Of a stretch of 64,000 nt of DNA, positions 5,027 through 63,935 are shown in pieces. Under the pieces are notes generated by a model. The model saw only the letters and a program-made list of their open reading frames with translations. It was not told the DNA's origin and did no database searches. Position 1 is the first letter of the stretch. Each line of letters begins with the position of its first letter. Source of the stretch: Escherichia phage MN01; the sequence record MT129652.1; one strand, written 5' to 3'. The position numbers were made by a program, and so were the translations under genes.

Positions 5027-5329
5027 ATGAAAACGTATAAAGAATTTATCACCGAAGCGCGCGTAAGTGCAGGTAAATTAGAAGCCGCTGTAAATAAAAA
5101 GGCCCATTCATTTCATGATTTACCAGATAAAGACCGTAAGAAACTTGTAAGCCTTTATATTGACAAAGAGCGTATTCTAGCTCTCCCTGGCGCTAACGAA
5201 GGTAAACAGGCCAAGCCTTTGAATTCTGTCGAAAAGAAAATTGATAACTTTGCTTCTAAGTTCGGCATGTCTATGGATGACCTTCAGCAAGCGGCTATCG
5301 AAGCAGCTAAAGCAATTAAAGGTAAATAA
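5027..5329 (+). CDS. capsid internal protein (IPII/IPIII type) with capsid targeting sequence
   Basis: N-terminus [11 protein letters not shown] matches T4 IP targeting sequence MKTYQEFIAEA with the I-x-E cleavage site. Confidence 0.8.
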
Positions 5330-5853: not shown

Positions 5854-6153
5854 ATGAAAACTTATCAAGAATTTATTACTGAAGCCAAAGCTCCTAAAGC
5901 ATTTCAAATTGGGGTTCAGGGTAATTTAGACCAACAATATGTTGATGCTATTGTAGCAAGCCTCGGTAAACAGGGTGTACAAGTGGATTTGGTTGATTTT
6001 ACTAAAGGTAATACTTTTAATATTGTTACATCTAAAGGTTCTTTAGCTAAAGTTAAAAAGGCCTTTGGTGTAGCACAAGCATACGAAATCGACCATTCTG
6101 AATTAGAAAATAAAGGTCGCCAGAACACAATTAAAGGTTCTGGTTCTTTCTAA
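5854..6153 (+). CDS. capsid internal protein with capsid targeting sequence
   Basis: MKTYQEFITEA at ATG 5854; the track's 5815 start is inside the -10 element. Confidence 0.75.
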   Translation: MKTYQEFITEAKAPKAFQIGVQGNLDQQYVDAIVASLGKQGVQVDLVDFTKGNTFNIVTSKGSLAKVKKAFGVAQAYEIDHSELENKGRQNTIKGSGSF

Positions 6154-7348: not shown

Positions 7349-7928
<580 letters not shown>

Positions 7929-13653: not shown

Positions 13654-14106
13654 ATGATTATCAATTCAAACTCTTGGCACGTTAAATTACACGACCGTTT
13701 TTATGACCGTCATTCTCGACCACACTCTTTGTGTGCTTATTTCTGGAAAATGATTTGGGCTTGTTTTGCTTGTGCTATTGTTGCAGGTAGTACGCTTTTT
13801 GGATTAACTGTTGCAGGCGCTGGTGTATTAGAACATTTCTTTGTATTAAGTACTCCTGTTCTGTTGAGTCTAGGGTTTGTTTTAGGGTTGGCTGCAATAG
13901 CTCTTATTATTGCGCTATCCATTGGTTTGGCATTAGGTGCGATGAATTTACACGCATGGTATGATGCACGTATAGAAGAAAAGGAATGGCAACGTATTCA
14001 AGCTGAGCGGGAAGGCCGAGAAATTAAAGAAAATATCGTTATTCAATACATTAAAGCTCGTAAATCTAAGATGTGCCCGGTAATCCATTTTGAGGCGAAG
14101 AAATGA
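13654..14106 (+). CDS. membrane protein (150 aa, 3 TM)
   Basis: SD AAGGA; long hydrophobic core. Confidence 0.6.
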   Translation: MIINSNSWHVKLHDRFYDRHSRPHSLCAYFWKMIWACFACAIVAGSTLFGLTVAGAGVLEHFFVLSTPVLLSLGFVLGLAAIALIIALSIGLALGAMNLHAWYDARIEEKEWQRIQAEREGREIKENIVIQYIKARKSKMCPVIHFEAKK

Positions 14107-15113
14107 GAACAGTTATGAAAGGCTACTTCGGTAGCCATCTTTATGGGACAAGTACTCCGGAATCTGATGTCGATTTTAAAGAAATCTTTGTTCCTCATCC
14201 GCGAGATATCCTGCTCGGAACCGCGATGAACCATACCAACCTGAACACAAATAACACGGCTACCAAAAATACAAAAGATGATGTTGACCATGAACTTTAT
14301 AGCCTGAAATATTTCTTTAAACTGGCAGCCGAAGGTGAAACCGTTGCCCTGGATATGATTCACACACCGGCTGACCTGGTAGTCAAATCCGATTTACCAG
14401 ATGTATGGAAGTTTATTCAAGACAACCGTTCGCGGTTCTATACAACTAACATGAAAGCCTATTTGGGGTATGTCCGTAAGCAAGCTTCCAAATATGGTGT
14501 TAAAGGTTCTCGATTGGCTGCACTGCGTGGTGTACTGGCAATCGTTAACCAGATTCCTGAACAGTGGGTCGACTATCAAGAAGGAATCCCTGATAAACTT
14601 CGTCGTACTAAGGTAGAAGATATCAAACATCGACTTCCTGAAAACGAGTTCTGTGAATGGGTATTCCATAACCATGAGAAAACAGGTCCTCAAACGTTCT
14701 ATACTGTCCTCGGACGTAAGTACCAAACTACTCTGTCATTGGTCGAGCTTAAGCAATCTCTGAATAAACTTGATGCCGAATATGGCGAACGTGCTCGTAA
14801 GGCTGAAGCTAATGAAGGTATTGACTGGAAAGCACTGAGCCATGCATATCGTGCAGGGTATCAATTGATGGAAATCTACCAAACAGGTGACTTGGTATTC
14901 CCATTGCGTGAAGCCTCTATCATTAAGCTGATTAAAGCTGGTGAATTACCATTTAAAGAAGTTCAAGAACTTCTTGAAGATACTGTCGATTTAGTTGAAG
15001 TTCTGGCCATCCAGGCTGCTAAGAATGGTATGCCTGCGAAGGTGGACATGAAGTTCTGGGACAAGTTTGTTGAAGAGGTATACCTTGACAACCACAATTC
15101 CTATTATCGTTAA
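14103..15113 (+). CDS. Pol-beta-superfamily nucleotidyltransferase
   Basis: Canonical FGSHLYGTSTPESDVDF (GS-x11-DxD). Confidence 0.75.
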   Translation: MRTVMKGYFGSHLYGTSTPESDVDFKEIFVPHPRDILLGTAMNHTNLNTNNTATKNTKDDVDHELYSLKYFFKLAAEGETVALDMIHTPADLVVKSDLPDVWKFIQDNRSRFYTTNMKAYLGYVRKQASKYGVKGSRLAALRGVLAIVNQIPEQWVDYQEGIPDKLRRTKVEDIKHRLPENEFCEWVFHNHEKTGPQTFYTVLGRKYQTTLSLVELKQSLNKLDAEYGERARKAEANEGIDWKALSHAYRAGYQLMEIYQTGDLVFPLREASIIKLIKAGELPFKEVQELLEDTVDLVEVLAIQAAKNGMPAKVDMKFWDKFVEEVYLDNHNSYYR

Positions 15114-15852: not shown

Positions 15853-16155
15853 ATGAAAAAGTATGAACTTGACATGATTGACGCATGTCTGAAATCTGCT
15901 GACCATTTTAAGTTGAAAATGCACAAGTTAAGAGGAATGGTCAAAACTCCAGAAGAGAAGAAGCGTTATGCTCTGAAGGAGAAATGTAAAGCTCTTATCA
16001 TGATGGATAAGATGCAAATGGTCGCCGCAGAAGCTCACAGAACACGTAAAGCTGAGGCCCTTGGTGTTTATATGGCGGAGCAGCTCCATCGCGCCCAGCA
16101 AGCCGTTAAGAGCGTCTGGTTCAGCGGTGAAAATACTGAAAGAACTTTTAATTAA
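15853..16155 (+). CDS. hypothetical protein (100 aa)
   Basis: SD GAGGA. Confidence 0.55.
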   Translation: MKKYELDMIDACLKSADHFKLKMHKLRGMVKTPEEKKRYALKEKCKALIMMDKMQMVAAEAHRTRKAEALGVYMAEQLHRAQQAVKSVWFSGENTERTFN

Positions 16156-16157
16156 AT

Positions 16158-16226
16158 GTGTACATAGTATGGGGATAGACGTATAATGTTCCCATACTGA
16201 GTTACCAAATACTGGAGAATAAAATG
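16158..16226 (+). repeat. promoter-leader cassette, direct repeat copy B
   Basis: TGTACA 16159-16164, TATAAT 16182-16187, leader CCCATACTGAGTTACCAAAT. Confidence 0.85.
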
Positions 16227-16748
16227 GAAGCCAAATCAATCTTTAATCTGATTAATTACAATAATGGTAATTTTAAATCAGAAGCACAAAGCAAGTTCTT
16301 TAATGATGTTGCTTGTGCAGGTGAGATTACAGTATCAGGTGGCCAAACTTATAAAAACGCCTGGAACTGGATTGTGACTGTTGATTCAGTTGGTATTGTT
16401 GATGTGTATAAAAACACCAATAAAAACCGCTCTTTGTTCTGGTCAAGAGAGACTAATGCTGAGTATCAGGCAACAAGAGCAAAGAAAAATATGCCTACTG
16501 AATCTGATGTACAAAACATCAAATCAGATATCCAGTATTATGATGGTCTGATTGCTGAACAACAAGCGGTGCTTGATAAGTTCAATGAAATCAAAGCATG
16601 CAAAGAAATTCCTGAATTCATGCGGGAATCAGTTAATGAACAATACAATCTCACTTCAGAGCGTATTGAAACCTATACCAAACAAAGAGCAGAGCGCCAG
16701 GTACTCCTTCAGAAGTTTGAAGAGCGTTTAAAGACGGTTCTCGCATAA
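16224..16748 (+). CDS. hypothetical early protein with C-terminal coiled coil
   Basis: Ends ...QRAERQVLLQKFEERLKTVLA. Confidence 0.6.
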   Translation: MEAKSIFNLINYNNGNFKSEAQSKFFNDVACAGEITVSGGQTYKNAWNWIVTVDSVGIVDVYKNTNKNRSLFWSRETNAEYQATRAKKNMPTESDVQNIKSDIQYYDGLIAEQQAVLDKFNEIKACKEIPEFMRESVNEQYNLTSERIETYTKQRAERQVLLQKFEERLKTVLA

Positions 16749-16749
16749 A

Positions 16750-16774
16750 CGCTTTATACCAAGGATGGTATAAT
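16750..16774 (+). promoter_or_regulatory. MotA-box middle promoter CGCTTTA-N12-TATAAT
   Basis: Box and spacing fit the T4 middle-promoter rule. Confidence 0.5.
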
Positions 16775-16811
16775 GGTTCTGACCTTTGATTAATCTATTG
16801 AGGAAATTATT

Positions 16812-17660
16812 ATGTCACAAGCAATTAATGAAATTCGTTCTGAAGTTAAAAAAGCTATTAAATTTGGTCGTATTCCAAGCACCAAAGATGTGGTTTTAAA
16901 TGTTCTATATATGATGTGGAATAAGTTCAATGTTTGTACTAATTCCGCTGAATTCACTAAAATCTTTGAAAAGACCACTGGCCTTCTTACATTAGAAGAC
17001 CGAGTCATGAAAACTCTTCATCGTTCAGGTATGTTGTCTCGTGCTAATGCCAAAATTTTACTTAAAAATTATAACAAAGGCTATGACCTTTATGGTCGTG
17101 CGATTAGCACCATGACGTTTGATGAAGTGGTTAAAGACCTTTGGAAAAACCAGCGTCGTTTACTGGCATTAGGTGCTCGTTTAGCAAGCGGTCAAGATAA
17201 ACAAATGACCTTTAAAACCAATAATTCTTTAGATTATAAACTATTTAATGTTATTAAAGGTCAAAAAGAAGGCGAATACAGTATTTCTTCTTTTAGTGGC
17301 TGCCAATATGATAATTGGAAGTTCCATCTTCGTTTAGCATTGTCTGAACTGGAATGCCAGGGTGTTCTTACCTTTTATGATGTTCAAACTGGAGGTGTCC
17401 AGCGTATTAAATTATGTCAAATTAAAGACCAAGTTGAAGTCGAGAGCCCCATTGAACAAGCTCCTAAAATGGAACCTGTTCCAGTGCGAAGCAATGAAAA
17501 ATATTCAGAGCAAATTGAGCTTTTCACTAAACAGATTGAAGAGCTTAATATCACCATCCAGCAACAAGATGATGAAATTTTCCGTCTGGCGGGACTGAAT
17601 AACGCGGCGAAAGCCGAACGTCAGAAACTGATGAACGTTATTGAATTGCTTAAGGATTAA
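16812..17660 (+). CDS. hypothetical early protein (282 aa) with C-terminal coiled coil
   Basis: Ends ...AKAERQKLMNVIELLKD. Confidence 0.65.
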   Translation: MSQAINEIRSEVKKAIKFGRIPSTKDVVLNVLYMMWNKFNVCTNSAEFTKIFEKTTGLLTLEDRVMKTLHRSGMLSRANAKILLKNYNKGYDLYGRAISTMTFDEVVKDLWKNQRRLLALGARLASGQDKQMTFKTNNSLDYKLFNVIKGQKEGEYSISSFSGCQYDNWKFHLRLALSELECQGVLTFYDVQTGGVQRIKLCQIKDQVEVESPIEQAPKMEPVPVRSNEKYSEQIELFTKQIEELNITIQQQDDEIFRLAGLNNAAKAERQKLMNVIELLKD

Positions 17661-17662
17661 TA

Positions 17663-17743
17663 ATGGAATGGCTTGCTGTTCTTGGTTATGTAATCGTCGC
17701 CACAGGTATTCTGTGGCTTATATTCTCAAATATTGTAGGTTAA
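17663..17743 (+). CDS. 26-aa single-TM micro-protein
   Basis: MEWLAVLGYVIVATGILWLIFSNIVG between TAATAATG and TAATATG junctions. Confidence 0.4.
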   Translation: MEWLAVLGYVIVATGILWLIFSNIVG

Positions 17744-17744
17744 T

Positions 17745-17960
17745 ATGACCATTTTGAGTATCAGTATTATTTTTGGCTATCTTGTGGTAGGATTTATTAC
17801 TACCCTGTTGCTCCACAAGTTTGATAGTCCCTACGAAAGTGGGGACGAGTATGATGCGGCGTTCACAACATTTTGCTGGCCTATATTCTGGGTAGTCGCT
17901 GTTATAATGTGTGTGACCTGGCCTATTGCTAAATTCTATGAAAAATTATTTGGACTATGA
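17745..17960 (+). CDS. small 2-TM membrane protein (FCWP family)
   Basis: TM1-acidic loop-FCWPIFWVVAVIM. Confidence 0.55.
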   Translation: MTILSISIIFGYLVVGFITTLLLHKFDSPYESGDEYDAAFTTFCWPIFWVVAVIMCVTWPIAKFYEKLFGL

Positions 17961-17961
17961 T

Positions 17962-18861
17962 ATGAAAATTAAAACTCGTGCTGAATATGCTAGTAGTTAT
18001 GAACCACATGACGGTCGTGTGACTCGTCTTATCGCAATGAATTCTTTGGTTAACTTTGGCAAAATCAAATCAGGTTCTGCTACCCAGGGGTATGGTCAAC
18101 GTATTGTAAGAATTAACTCTCTGAATGATTACTGCCGCCGCCCAGCGTTTTTGTTTGGTGCCACGGTTCGTAAGAGTATCAAGGAAATTCTGGCCGGCGG
18201 ATTTCGTATTCGCAAAGCTCCGGTTAACATCAAGAACTATAATTTTAACTCTGACAACTTGATTATCAATATCAAGAATGATGGTGTACAGATTAAGTTC
18301 AAACCAACCACCAAGGGCGATGTTGCTCTTTGTCATAACTTTAAAGAGGTTATGGGTATTGCGCTGTTTTATATGCGCCATGCTGTTGAATCGTACACGT
18401 TTGATGAAGATACAAATTATATCCACCAAACGGAAAAATTCCTCAAAACTATAGCTATTGATATTAAATTAACTAAAGAATATCTTTTGTCTTATGCTCC
18501 TTATCAAGAGAAAAATGAACCAGAAGATAAAAAGGAACCAGAAATGGAACGTATCCCTACCGCATCATATGGCCCAGCATTTGCAGGTCAGTTTAAATCT
18601 TACGACCAGACTAAAATTTCACCACTGGAAGTTAAAAATATGTATCAATGGAAAATCCAGCCCGACAGCTCTCTTGAAATCTTTAACCCACCAATGAAGC
18701 CTATTGAGAGCTATCATGCTGATGCTATCCGGGAATCGGTTAACCGCTTAAATGGTCTGATTGAAGATGAGAAAAAGGGTATCCAGGATGTTCTGAATCG
18801 CATCAAGAATATGGAAAAACAACGCAATAAATTGCAAGCTGCAATCAAAGCATTAAAATAA
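17962..18861 (+). CDS. hypothetical early protein (299 aa) with C-terminal coiled coil
   Basis: ATG 17962 just after the upstream stop; ends ...MEKQRNKLQAAIKALK. Confidence 0.65.
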   Translation: MKIKTRAEYASSYEPHDGRVTRLIAMNSLVNFGKIKSGSATQGYGQRIVRINSLNDYCRRPAFLFGATVRKSIKEILAGGFRIRKAPVNIKNYNFNSDNLIINIKNDGVQIKFKPTTKGDVALCHNFKEVMGIALFYMRHAVESYTFDEDTNYIHQTEKFLKTIAIDIKLTKEYLLSYAPYQEKNEPEDKKEPEMERIPTASYGPAFAGQFKSYDQTKISPLEVKNMYQWKIQPDSSLEIFNPPMKPIESYHADAIRESVNRLNGLIEDEKKGIQDVLNRIKNMEKQRNKLQAAIKALK

Positions 18862-18862
18862 T

Positions 18863-18892
18863 GTTTACTTCCAAGGATGGAGGGAGTATAAT
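18863..18892 (+). promoter_or_regulatory. early promoter GTTTAC-N18-TATAAT
   Basis: Read directly. Confidence 0.6.
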
Positions 18893-18919
18893 GAATTCCT
18901 ACTTTATGAGGAGAACACT

Positions 18920-19912
18920 ATGACGCGTAACGAATATATCCAGGCCTTTAATACCACTATTGATGCAAAAGTAAAACCATTAATAGGTGAATCGGCTATC
19001 CTTTTAATTATCAATTACTGGTTAAATCAGATTGACTCGACGATTGTTGCATCCGGTCGCTTCAAGAAAGACATTGCGACTATTGCGAGTCGTGCCGGTA
19101 AAGATGATATCAAGAAAACTTTTAAAGGTTCCCGAGTCCTGGCATACCTAGTTAATAAAGACCTTCTTAATAAGTTTGGTGTTGAATCCAGACGTGGTAA
19201 AGGTACAATTGGATATCATTGGTTTGGTGATGTTGAAAAATACTACCTTGATAATCAAGGCTATACTGTTTCTGAATTCGCAAATTGCTGGGCTCGTGAA
19301 TTCAGAGATAACAAAATGTCTATCATCAAATCAGCGACAAAATTGATGGGTGGCGATTATCGCACTATCTCCCATTTGGCTGAGCACATGATAAAGGTTA
19401 AAGAGTCTGGTGCAAACCAGGTAATTATTACAGCTAAGTATGGATTCTTTACGCCAGTGGCTACCCCAGAAAATGTCAAAAAGTATTTTGATGCTGCAAG
19501 TACGCTTACTTCACAGATGCAGTGTGCCCTTAATTATATGCGTACTGTTGAAAAAATTAAAGTAGACCCTATCACCAGTACTCATGGTTGGAAAGGTTGG
19601 AAAATTGTGGTGACATTACGCGAAGTTAAATGTGCAAAGCAACCAACTGTTGCAGAAATCCATAAAAAGAAAAATGAGGAAATTATGAACGCTCCGCATG
19701 AAGTTACCACCCTTGAAGACCTGATTGATAATCTGAATAATGAGCCAGTGAAACAAAAAGCGCCTGAAATTGTTGCCCTGGAAACAGCGTATAATGAAGC
19801 TCTTGCTGTTAATAAAAAAGCAACTGAAGACTATACAAAAGCCAAGCGACTTTGGGAAGAATCAACCAATCGTCTGGATAAACTGGAACAGGCCCTGGAG
19901 CTGCTGAAATGA
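18920..19912 (+). CDS. hypothetical early protein (330 aa) with C-terminal coiled coil
   Basis: SD GAGGAG; ends ...STNRLDKLEQALELLK. Confidence 0.65.
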   Translation: MTRNEYIQAFNTTIDAKVKPLIGESAILLIINYWLNQIDSTIVASGRFKKDIATIASRAGKDDIKKTFKGSRVLAYLVNKDLLNKFGVESRRGKGTIGYHWFGDVEKYYLDNQGYTVSEFANCWAREFRDNKMSIIKSATKLMGGDYRTISHLAEHMIKVKESGANQVIITAKYGFFTPVATPENVKKYFDAASTLTSQMQCALNYMRTVEKIKVDPITSTHGWKGWKIVVTLREVKCAKQPTVAEIHKKKNEEIMNAPHEVTTLEDLIDNLNNEPVKQKAPEIVALETAYNEALAVNKKATEDYTKAKRLWEESTNRLDKLEQALELLK

Positions 19913-20247
19913 AACAACGTTTAGCTGAAGATATTGCAGAAACTGCATTTCCAGAATGGACCCCCGCTGTGGGGGTTAATAAAGGTCTTTTAAAATTTAT
20001 TGAAAACGCCGAAGGCGAAGACCTTGTACAGTTAGGAAAGATTCATGGCTGTGATGATTATAGTCAGGTTCCCGATTGGGATATGGTAATGGCTATGGTT
20101 CGCCGCCGTGAACGCGCTTCTAAGAGCGTTCCAAACTGTCCAGAATGCGGAACTGAACAGGTCCAGTTGGTCCATTGGCAGACTAGCAATCTTCGTTATA
20201 AATGCAGACATTGTAAACACAAATTTGAGCGAGAAGAAAATGATTAA
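19909..20247 (+). CDS. protein with C-terminal zinc ribbon
   Basis: CPECG-x17-CRHCKHKF. Confidence 0.6.
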   Translation: MKQRLAEDIAETAFPEWTPAVGVNKGLLKFIENAEGEDLVQLGKIHGCDDYSQVPDWDMVMAMVRRRERASKSVPNCPECGTEQVQLVHWQTSNLRYKCRHCKHKFEREEND

Positions 20248-44990: not shown

Positions 44991-45158
44991 ATGAAAACAT
45001 TCAAAGATTTTATCAACGAAGATATGGTTGCCGGTGATGCAGGCGGAAACCCAACTAATATCGCAACAGGTACCACTTCCGGGGCAGTTGTCAATAAAGG
45101 CCCTGAACAAATCCCATCAAAAAAGCGTAAGAACAAAGACGATAAACCTACAGTATAA
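44991..45158 (+). CDS. 55-aa protein with capsid-targeting-like N-terminus
   Basis: SD AAGGGGG; MKTFKDFINED resembles the IP targeting sequences MKTY[KQ]EFITEA in this window; basic tail KKRKNK. Confidence 0.5.
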   Translation: MKTFKDFINEDMVAGDAGGNPTNIATGTTSGAVVNKGPEQIPSKKRKNKDDKPTV

Positions 45159-57610: not shown

Positions 57611-57635
57611 TGCTTTAAAATATGTGACTTATAAT
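57611..57635 (+). promoter_or_regulatory. MotA-box middle promoter TGCTTTA-N12-TATAAT (gene 39)
   Basis: Consensus box abutting the terminator. Confidence 0.6.
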
Positions 57636-63451: not shown

Positions 63452-63935
63452 ACAAACAATTGCTAAAGATGGCTCGGCTCGTGGTATTGTCCACGGGCTA
63501 GGTCACACGCCTGAATACATTGTATGGATTGGCATGAAAGCTCGGTGTTGCAATCCAACACATATTAGTTATTCTCGATATGGCGGTCGGGGTATCACTG
63601 TTTGCGATGAATGGCTGCATGATTTTGAAAGATTTTATACAGATATGGGGCCACGACCCACTGACAAACATCAACTTGACCGAACAGATAACGATAAAGG
63701 GTACTCTCCCGATAACTGCAGATGGGTTAGTCCAGGCGAGAATGCTTTAAATAAGCGCCCGTATAATAACAACAAGTCTGGATTTAAAGGAGTCTCGTTT
63801 GATAAACGAGCTTTGAATAAACCATGGCGAGCCACTATTATGCGAAATAAAAAACAAATTCAAGTCGGAGCTTTTGCAACTCCAGAAGAAGCAAATGAAG
63901 CTCGATTAAAATATATGGAAGAACACAATGTCTAA
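63444..63935 (+). mobile_element. AP2-domain HNH-like homing endonuclease
   Basis: EYIVWIGMKARC..YGGRGITVCDEW..LDRTDNDKGYSPDNCRW plus C-terminal AP2-like GFKGVS..W.A.I...K....G.F.T.EEA. Confidence 0.7.

Follow-up and report, generated by a model that had tools for sequence, protein, structure and literature searches.

Diverged NrdC.4, NrdC.5 and NrdC.6 paralogs with a predicted C-terminal coiled-coil tail as candidate counter-defence proteins of a T4-like coliphage

The genes nrdC.3 to nrdC.8 of phage T4 are early genes that have long been labelled 'hypothetical'. The closest described system is T4 NrdC.5. When nrdC.5 was provided in trans, the plating of a T4 deletion mutant was restored on cells that carried Dsr1, a SIR2 defence gene from ECOR17 (Srikant et al., eLife 2022, PMC9391042). 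In the same work, evolved T4 could do without the region on the laboratory host, but its loss restricted the host range (PMC9391042). Dsr1 is reported to sense the phage major capsid protein via a tetratricopeptide repeat (TPR) sensor (PMC12803255). In the present study, the corresponding genes were analyzed in Escherichia phage MN01 (MT129652.1), of which a stretch of 64,000 nucleotides, hereafter the window, was used. The reading we favour, with a probability of roughly 60%, is that nrdC.6, nrdC.5 and nrdC.4 make up a tandem array whose early/middle products are diversifying counter-defence proteins with an ancestral coiled-coil tail, and that NrdC.8 is an unrelated neighbour.

The window was assigned to a T4-like, Gaprivervirus-like coliphage. 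The region 16000-20000 shared 95% identity with Escherichia phage vB_EcoM_RZ and about 93% with vB_EcoM_VR7 (genus Gaprivervirus, Straboviridae). The four open reading frames (ORFs) with starts at 16224, 16812, 17962 and 18920, as given in the initial annotation, were present on the + strand, and 16224-16748, 16812-17660, 17962-18861 and 18920-19912 were identified as nrdC.8, nrdC.6, nrdC.5 and nrdC.4, respectively. In the VR7 annotation these genes are flanked by nrdC.9 and by nrdC.2/nrdC.1/nrdC. The block of the window lay likewise between nrdC.9 and nrdC.2/nrdC, syntenic with VR7 and T4, and the T4 gene order matched with nrdC.7 and nrdC.3 as additional genes. All four proteins had full-length PHROG matches: NrdC.8 to phrog_2274 (E-value, E, 7e-99), NrdC.6 to phrog_2257 (E 1e-119), NrdC.5 to phrog_2351 (E 1e-103) and NrdC.4 to phrog_1435 (E 1e-140), each with its function not annotated. 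In the Pfam search of the four proteins, only DUF7235 (PF23882) passed, matched by NrdC.5 with E 1.4e-123, and the others were below the threshold; the precomputed Pfam labels were PF26899 for NrdC.6 and PF26897 for NrdC.4. The identity between window NrdC.5 and T4 NrdC.5 was about 26%.

The N-terminal bodies of the four proteins had been described as apparently unrelated, which proved incorrect for NrdC.4, NrdC.5 and NrdC.6. Pairwise BLASTP of the four sequences was uninformative, with weak matches in the tails only (best E 0.004). Profiles of 3-4 sequences linked NrdC.4 to NrdC.3 and not to the others, and therefore deeper profiles were needed. The heads were compared by hhalign, using family profiles without their last 65 residues. 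NrdC.4 matched NrdC.3 with E 3e-14 over 208 columns, and NrdC.5 matched NrdC.4 with E 1e-4. The merged head profile of NrdC.3 and NrdC.4 matched NrdC.5 with E 8e-7 (probability 92%, 150 columns) and NrdC.6 with E 0.006 (109 columns, collinear). Furthermore, three elements common to NrdC.3, NrdC.4, NrdC.5 and NrdC.6 could be found by eye: the N-terminal M(K)TRxEY, a helix with ...SRLLS...NF, and a helix with ...N...L...A.RL..G.D+. The start of nrdC.5 at 17962 was favoured because its N-terminus, MKIKTRAEY, matches the first of these paralog motifs. In an exhaustive hidden Markov model (HMM) search of the NrdC.4 family against 1.84 billion representatives, the matches were limited to relatives of NrdC.4, to fragments and to NrdC.3 (E 9e-8), with none from bacteria or from outside the T4-like phages. 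The family is small, phage-restricted and fast-evolving.

For NrdC.6 and NrdC.4, AlphaFold2 monomer models were obtained on the family alignments, with a mean predicted local distance difference test (pLDDT) score of 80 and 81, respectively. The order of elements was common to both models: 5-6 helices, 2-3 helices, a beta-beta-alpha-beta-beta unit, a linker and a long helix. The NrdC.4 model possessed an additional three-strand insertion and short helices compared with that of NrdC.6. In the Foldseek search against BFVD, both models matched one common set of uncharacterised proteins, about 300-335 aa long, over the full length, with a probability of 1.00 and an identity of 13-17%. These targets came from Pectobacterium phage PM2, Enterobacter phage IME523, Acinetobacter phages fHyAci03 and Acj61 (two adjacent genes in the latter) and Yersinia phage fHe-Yen9-01. 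The E-values, paired as NrdC.6 model/NrdC.4 model, were 5.5e-9/4.6e-8 for PM2 A0A0A0PZG4, 1.9e-9/1.5e-7 for IME523, 2.6e-7/4.8e-8 for fHyAci03, 1.4e-5/2.3e-7 for Acj61 E5E4A2 and 3.8e-4/6.8e-5 for fHe-Yen9-01. By profile and model comparison, NrdC.3, NrdC.4, NrdC.5 and NrdC.6 are therefore assigned as anciently and strongly diverged paralogs of one superfamily specific to T4-like phages (Straboviridae). For NrdC.6 the sequence by itself was weak, and the case for its membership rests on the predicted structure. Since the heads are homologous, the tail was inherited with the head by gene duplication, and module shuffling is not needed to explain why it is shared. The tail is an ancestral part of these proteins, not a module shuffled or grafted onto unrelated heads, as had been proposed.

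A heptad helix was found at all four C-termini, free of Pro, amphipathic and about 45-53 aa long, with models available for NrdC.6 and NrdC.4. When the 91 + strand ORFs of the window with 80 aa or more were ranked by a heptad heuristic on their C-terminal 28-mers, NrdC.5 was first, NrdC.8 second, NrdC.4 third and NrdC.6 tenth. By our own arithmetic, the chance that any run of four neighbouring genes all reaches the top 10 is about 0.007. The lower score of NrdC.6 was because of a kink (AGLNN) within the last 28 residues, the best stretch being located slightly upstream. The fourth-best score of the window belonged to a 113-aa ORF (7587-7928), which is unrelated to the NrdC cluster. In agreement with the initial annotation, a Pro/Glu-rich linker preceded the helix in three proteins and was modelled as disordered in NrdC.6 and NrdC.4 (Table 1), and the 3' ends of the four genes had no similarity to each other at the DNA level.

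For the alignment of the register, the last 42 residues of seven groups (NrdC.3, NrdC.4, NrdC.5, NrdC.6, PM2, CC31 and W16) were anchored without gaps at the C-terminal L-K. All seven groups exhibited six heptads in one register, with 9-11 of the 12 a/d positions hydrophobic versus 3-9 of the 30 other positions. The residues common to at least four of the seven groups were L-37 (d), E-27, I-26 (a), L-9 (d), A-6 (g), L-5 (a), L-2 (d) and K-1, and the terminal pattern of the superfamily helix was L-x-x-A-[LIV]-x-x-L-K. The NrdC.5 tail had Ile at a and Leu/Met/Val at d. More generally, NrdC.5, NrdC.6 and NrdC.3 showed Ile or Leu at a, interrupted by isolated Arg or Asn, and Leu at d, a pattern that by established coiled-coil rules would point to parallel dimers. 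The tails are predicted coiled coils by the sequence criterion of at least four uninterrupted heptads with hydrophobic a/d positions in a predicted helix.

The common terminal pattern claimed in the initial annotation was not confirmed as such. The heptad register and the a/d core were shared by NrdC.4, NrdC.5 and NrdC.6; as a sequence the pattern was weak, and NrdC.8 did not match it. Leave-one-family-out tail HMMs, run against all 499 ORFs in the six frames of the window, placed NrdC.4 and NrdC.5 first (E 0.03-1, in the last 16-28 residues) and NrdC.6 at rank 9-24. None of the tail-only profile comparisons over 42-65 residues was significant, and the cross-family signal was found only in the last 16-28 residues. 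The conservation within families was calculated by aligning non-redundant orthologs. For the last 45 aa and for the head, pairwise identity averaged 0.63 and 0.46 in NrdC.3, 0.72 and 0.52 in NrdC.4, and 0.76 and 0.67 in NrdC.5, respectively, and the last 20 aa of NrdC.4 reached 0.78 across orthologs. In NrdC.6 and NrdC.8, the last 45 aa and the head were about equally conserved. The terminal pattern did not vanish among orthologs: the tails were kept, and they were the best-conserved segment in NrdC.3, NrdC.4 and NrdC.5. It is plausible that the tail is a coiled-coil-type oligomerisation element under constraint.

NrdC.8 is a separate family outside the NrdC.3-6 superfamily and is far more conserved. 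It was 66-78% identical in 745 phage records. When the NrdC.8 head was compared with the other families by hhalign, no match was obtained (E of 0.03 or above over at most 16 columns), and with the all-superfamily tail HMM it was unmatched, at rank 93 of 355 with E 37. The NrdC.8 tail fitted the family register more poorly, with a shift of one residue and 8 of the 12 core positions. Moreover, a full-length NrdC.8 homolog was found outside Straboviridae, namely g024 of the Yersinia jumbo phage fHe-Yen9-04 (L010, 1453-1932, 159 aa). It shared 44% identity with NrdC.8 over the N-domain, and its C-terminal half was likewise helix-Pro-helix, with a different ending. The resemblance of the NrdC.8 tail to the others is one of generic helix composition.

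The superfamily was further compared among the relatives. T4 nrdC.3 is a fifth T4 gene with such a tail, ending in ...LTAKANGLRNAIEVLK, and it is an extra copy in T4 and RB69-type phages. Single syntenic members were found in T4-like phages of Pectobacterium, Enterobacter and Acinetobacter. For instance, PM2_092, located between nrdC.9 and nrdC.2, combines the NrdC.6-type head motif FLALGAR with an NrdC.5-type tail (...KLFAALSALK), and its head matched NrdC.6 with E 6e-6 by hhalign. CC31p082 had the family build and the terminal motif, ending in ...LRISLEVISEPKAGV, and in Acinetobacter phage W16 a 386-aa protein encoded immediately 5' of nrdC also had the family build and the terminal motif, ending in ...DIQALESALSILRRPNSK. 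The copy number was one in PM2, CC31 and W16, two in Acj61, and three or four in the window, the RB69-type phage JS09 and T4. The head identity between genera was about 26-50%, versus 66-87% for NrdC and NrdC.8.

Several rearrangements of these genes were also observed. Salmonella phage Manna (PP987310; L005, 6206-7243) possessed an in-frame chimera, in which the NrdC.6 head and the first half of its helix continued into the NrdC.4 linker and tail. At the fusion point there was an exact 10-nt microhomology (TGATGAAATT) in a 21-nt stretch matching at 18 of 21 positions. The deletion removed nrdC.5 and most of nrdC.4, leaving the chimera as the sole copy of either nrdC.6 or nrdC.4. In Shigella phage SP18, nrdC.5 was split into annotated ORFs of 170 and 125 aa (L006, 7042-7554 and 7569-7946) and is probably a frameshifted or decaying copy. 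Shigella phage Sf25 gp220 (P0089, 378 aa) was an NrdC.6 with an in-frame tandem duplication of residues ~177-259, which runs from within the beta-beta-alpha-beta-beta unit through the linker into the beginning of the helix; it had been considered as a paralog chimera, which was rejected since the duplication is internal to NrdC.6. Another candidate, a 336-aa protein (P0135) of a metagenomic contig (ENA ERZ4239850; L011, 75-1085), carried a 178-aa N-terminus in front of the C-terminal 158 aa of NrdC.5, and the N-terminal part had no Pfam match. As a second head on an NrdC.5 tail it was not used, being on a lone 1873-nt contig with about 2x coverage that may be an assembly chimera. The plastic region, the head divergence, the copy-number variation, the chimera, the split and the duplication are hallmarks of arms-race accessory genes. 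A diversifying family would explain the copy-number variation of the cluster among T4-like phages.

The initial annotation had given nrdC.8, nrdC.6 and nrdC.4 promoters of their own at 16159, 16750 and 18863. The sites at 16159 and 18863 were promoter-like, with 10 of the 12 sigma-70 consensus positions. The site near 16750 did not hold as an early sigma-70 promoter, with a spacer of only 12 bp, and fitted a MotA-box middle promoter. In T4 middle promoters, the MotA box (a/t)(a/t)(a/t)TGCTTtA is placed 11-13 bp before a TAnnnT -10 element. The element at 16747-16774 reads AAACGCTTTA-12-TATAAT and is, by these sequence criteria, a putative MotA-dependent middle promoter. GCTTTA-N11-13-TATAAT was found at the equivalent place, 3 bp past the nrdC.8 stop, in VR7, T4, MX01, JS09, Manna and SP18, and immediately 5' of the sole family member in CC31, giving 7 loci with the element in total. 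In the window, three exact matches were observed versus 0.08 expected by chance; the other two (57612-57635 and 63744-63767, + strand) are candidate middle promoters. In addition, the decamer CCAAGGATGG was present at 16759-16768 and 18871-18880, after the upstream element and before the -10 box of the promoter-like regions of nrdC.6 and nrdC.4. These sites belong to a repeat family (D6) of 21 nt with 76% identity. The RegB endoribonuclease motif GGAG was found in the Shine-Dalgarno regions of nrdC.8 (16211-16216, ctGGAGaa) and nrdC.4 (18908-18915, gaGGAGaa), and moderate RegB cleavage has been reported for the GGAG of T4 nrdC.8 (PMC1702504).

The genes nrdC.6, nrdC.5 and nrdC.4 lie in the variable region upstream of nrdC and would be transcribed from the early-type promoters and the conserved MotA-type middle promoter. 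Their products have one build in common: the head is two-lobed, with a helical bundle and the beta-beta-alpha-beta-beta unit, and is connected by a disordered acidic/proline linker to the six-heptad helix of about 45-53 residues. According to the proposed mechanism, the fast-evolving head would recognise a host target, in the Dsr1 pathway for T4 NrdC.5, and the remaining paralogs would probably be directed at different defence or host factors. By its conserved tail, each protein may self-associate into a parallel, probably dimeric, coiled coil, which would give avidity or sequestering power. The homology, common architecture, heptad register, conservation pattern and synteny are results of the present analysis, whereas the counter-defence role of the other paralogs and of window NrdC.5 and the self-association and oligomer state of the tails are inferred. 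Because one family with a proven anti-Dsr1 member is involved, three orphan genes become concrete inhibitor candidates, and NrdC.3, NrdC.4 and NrdC.6 are nominated as candidate inhibitors of other defence systems. A simple experimental design also follows, with the head setting the specificity and the tail driving assembly.

Four points weigh against this reading. The experimental evidence for counter-defence concerns one paralog, T4 NrdC.5, and at the low identity of window NrdC.5 given above the Dsr1 specificity is not to be assumed. The link of NrdC.6 consists of weak sequence scores (E 0.006-0.025) and indirect structural matches. The upstream heptads of NrdC.4 have Ala/Ser at several d positions and aromatic Tyr/Trp at several a positions, so that this tail is no textbook leucine zipper. 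Finally, independent functional support was not obtained from similarity to solved structures or to defence and anti-defence families: PADLOC had no matches, the Pfam matches were those described above, the PDB sequence search gave nothing relevant, and the fold and profile searches yielded no functional lead. The absence of any match of a member to known anti-defence or defence families (Pfam, PHROG, PADLOC), together with that single experimental datum, would also suit an alternative in which the family is not devoted to counter-defence overall. Its members would be host-takeover factors or accessory factors of nucleotide/DNA metabolism, with the anti-Dsr1 activity of T4 NrdC.5 as a special case, and the neighbours are indeed nucleotide-metabolism genes (nrdC, nrdD/G and tk). 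This is regarded as very unlikely, given that head divergence, copy-number variation, chimeras and pseudogenisation are typical of arms-race accessory genes, and that the region deletion in evolved T4 restricted the host range (PMC9391042).

Other alternatives concern the tail. The initial annotation had suggested that it is a common docking or oligomerisation module bringing different effector heads to one complex or host target, and mixed hetero-oligomers (a 'multi-warhead') would be included. Counted from the C-terminus, the register is alike in all paralogs, as is the a/d core, so that mixed coiled coils are sterically conceivable; the genes are adjacent and co-expressed, and the Manna chimera suggests that the tails are interchangeable. 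However, with homologous heads no shuffling is required, and the exposed b, c, e, f and g positions, which are conserved inside ortholog groups, differ between paralogs, contrary to a common docking surface. Nearly only the buried a/d positions are conserved across paralogs, and therefore self-association is favoured over docking to a common partner. In addition, the tail is retained in the single-member lineages PM2, CC31 and W16 and thus works in the absence of paralog partners, and the NrdC.8 tail fails the family tail profile. Delivery to one complex or target is thus not favoured, and the docking module is considered unlikely. It is quite unlikely, too, that the shared core and register let co-expressed paralogs form mixed coiled coils, and thereby combinatorial multi-headed counter-defence complexes, or dock by their tails to one hub, with recombination in the tail region, as in Manna, serving as head-swapping for new specificities. 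Alternatively, the tail might have no role in assembly and be an ancestral leftover, such as a stalk or a helix packing on the head or target, the likeness of NrdC.8 being that of a generic charged amphipathic helix of phage early proteins. The cross-family similarity of the tails was weak (E 0.03 to >1 in the leave-one-family-out searches), further window genes have heptad-like C-termini (e.g., 7587-7928 and 5027-5329), and the core of the upstream NrdC.4 tail is Ala/aromatic, not Leu/Ile. Against this, the tail follows a disordered linker, its helix of about 50 residues stands free in the models (pLDDT 70-84 in NrdC.6 and 67-78 in NrdC.4), an exposed hydrophobic stripe of six heptads is unlikely to remain unpaired, the tail is better conserved than the head in NrdC.3, NrdC.4 and NrdC.5, and the register is kept as far as the Acinetobacter phages. 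A tail without an assembly role is considered unlikely, and the ancestral self-associating tail on diversifying counter-defence heads is preferred.

The features of the locus are listed in Table 1. The 71-aa ORF between nrdC.6 and nrdC.5 is strongly hydrophobic and is called a hypothetical protein in the annotations of VR7 and MX01, and its Pfam search gave no match; in place of it, T4 has a 133-aa membrane protein, NrdC.7, between nrdC.8 and nrdC.6. The nrdC.4 stop overlapped the nrdC.2 start at 19909 (ATGA). NrdC.2 (19909-20247) had a C-terminal zinc-ribbon-like CxxC...CxxC, with weak Pfam zinc-ribbon matches. NrdC.11 (14103-15113) matched Pfam RlaP with E 1.3e-12, a DNA polymerase beta-type nucleotidyltransferase of an RNA repair pathway. 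The AAA-type nrdC.10 of T4, MX01 and JS09 was absent between nrdC.11 and nrdC.9 in the window or in VR7.

Table 1. Coordinates of the predicted genes, protein segments and signals of the nrdC.8-nrdC.4 region in the window.
Feature	Coordinates	Strand	Remarks
Sigma-70 promoter-like site, early type, before nrdC.8	16159..16187	+	TGTACA-17-TATAAT, 10/12 consensus positions; consensus match only
nrdC.8 ortholog, 174 aa	16224..16748	+	beta-rich N-domain ~95 aa, helix-Pro-helix, last helix ~aa 131-174
MotA-box-like middle promoter before nrdC.6	16747..16774	+	aaaCGCTTTA-12 bp-TATAAT; 3 bp past nrdC.8 stop
nrdC.6 head, aa 1-206	16812..17429	+	helical lobe aa 3-130; beta-beta-alpha-beta-beta unit aa 145-202; AlphaFold2
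nrdC.6 Pro/Glu-rich linker, aa 207-228	17430..17495	+	modelled disordered, pLDDT <50; sequence ...SPIEQAPKMEPVPVRSNEK
nrdC.6 C-terminal heptad helix, aa 229-281, and stop	17496..17660	+	single modelled helix; a/d hydrophobic 9/12
Terminator-like hairpin 3' of nrdC.6	17699..17717	+	stem 8 bp, 5 G-C pairs, T-rich tail; consensus match only
Hydrophobic ORF, 71 aa, between nrdC.6 and nrdC.5	17745..17960	+	outside the NrdC family; stop overlaps/abuts the nrdC.5 start region
nrdC.5 head and linker, aa 1-250	17962..18711	+	DUF7235; alternative starts 17938 (ATG), 17926 (TTG)
nrdC.5 C-terminal heptad helix, ~aa 251-299, and stop	18712..18861	+	top C-terminal heptad score in the window; a/d hydrophobic 10/12; helix predicted from sequence
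Early-type promoter-like site before nrdC.4	18863..18892	+	GTTTAC-18-TATAAT, 10/12 consensus positions
nrdC.4 head, aa 1-258	18920..19693	+	helical lobe with 3-strand insertion, beta-beta-alpha-beta-beta unit, one extra helix; AlphaFold2
nrdC.4 linker, aa 259-281	19694..19762	+	modelled disordered, pLDDT <50 at aa 259-265, 267-281
nrdC.4 C-terminal heptad helix, aa 282-329, and stop	19763..19912	+	modelled helix; a/d hydrophobic 10/12

Compared with known systems, the tails resembled the parallel dimeric leucine zippers of the GCN4 type in their unbroken heptads, in the Ile/Leu at a and Leu at d of NrdC.5, NrdC.6 and NrdC.3, in the single buried polar Arg/Asn at a, and in the chain-terminal position after a flexible linker. 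They differed in the Ala/Ser at d and the upstream Tyr/Trp at a of NrdC.4 and in having no basic DNA-binding region, and the NrdC tails are known from sequence and monomer models. The T4 internal proteins IPI, IPII and IPIII are likewise variable accessory proteins with a conserved terminal segment, encoded in plastic regions, and their capsid targeting sequence (CTS) is the best known case of a shared short tag on different anti-restriction bodies. The CTS, however, is an N-terminal segment of about 10 aa (MKTYQEFIAE) that is cut by the prohead protease and directs capsid targeting, whereas the NrdC element is C-terminal, a heptad helix some 50 aa long. The N-termini of the NrdC proteins were rejected as CTS, with more than 4 of 10 mismatches versus 1-2 in the true CTS ORFs of the window, and they are part of the folded head. 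Genuine CTS starts were found in the window at 5027-5329 and ~5854-6150 (MKTYQEFITEAKA... among them), with a weaker one (MKTFKDFINED...) at ~44991-45155. By their sequence, these ORFs are likely to be IPII/IPIII-type internal proteins and another prohead-core protein.

DSAD1 of phage SPbeta, the DSR2 inhibitor, is a direct-binding neutraliser of a defence-associated sirtuin, and its likeness to T4 NrdC.5 is a functional analogy only. DSAD1 differs in host, in phage type and in target (DSR2, not Dsr1). T4 NrdC.5 itself is the closest: window NrdC.5 shares its Pfam family, its position in the nrdC cluster, its architecture and its tail, and NrdC.4 and NrdC.6 are its more distant paralogs. What differs is that the published work (PMC9391042) describes it without the NrdC.3/.4/.6 paralogy, the domain build or the tail. 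The present report is therefore a fresh description of known hypothetical genes inside a known picture, that of paralogous counter-defence genes in plastic phage regions, and not of a new kind of system.

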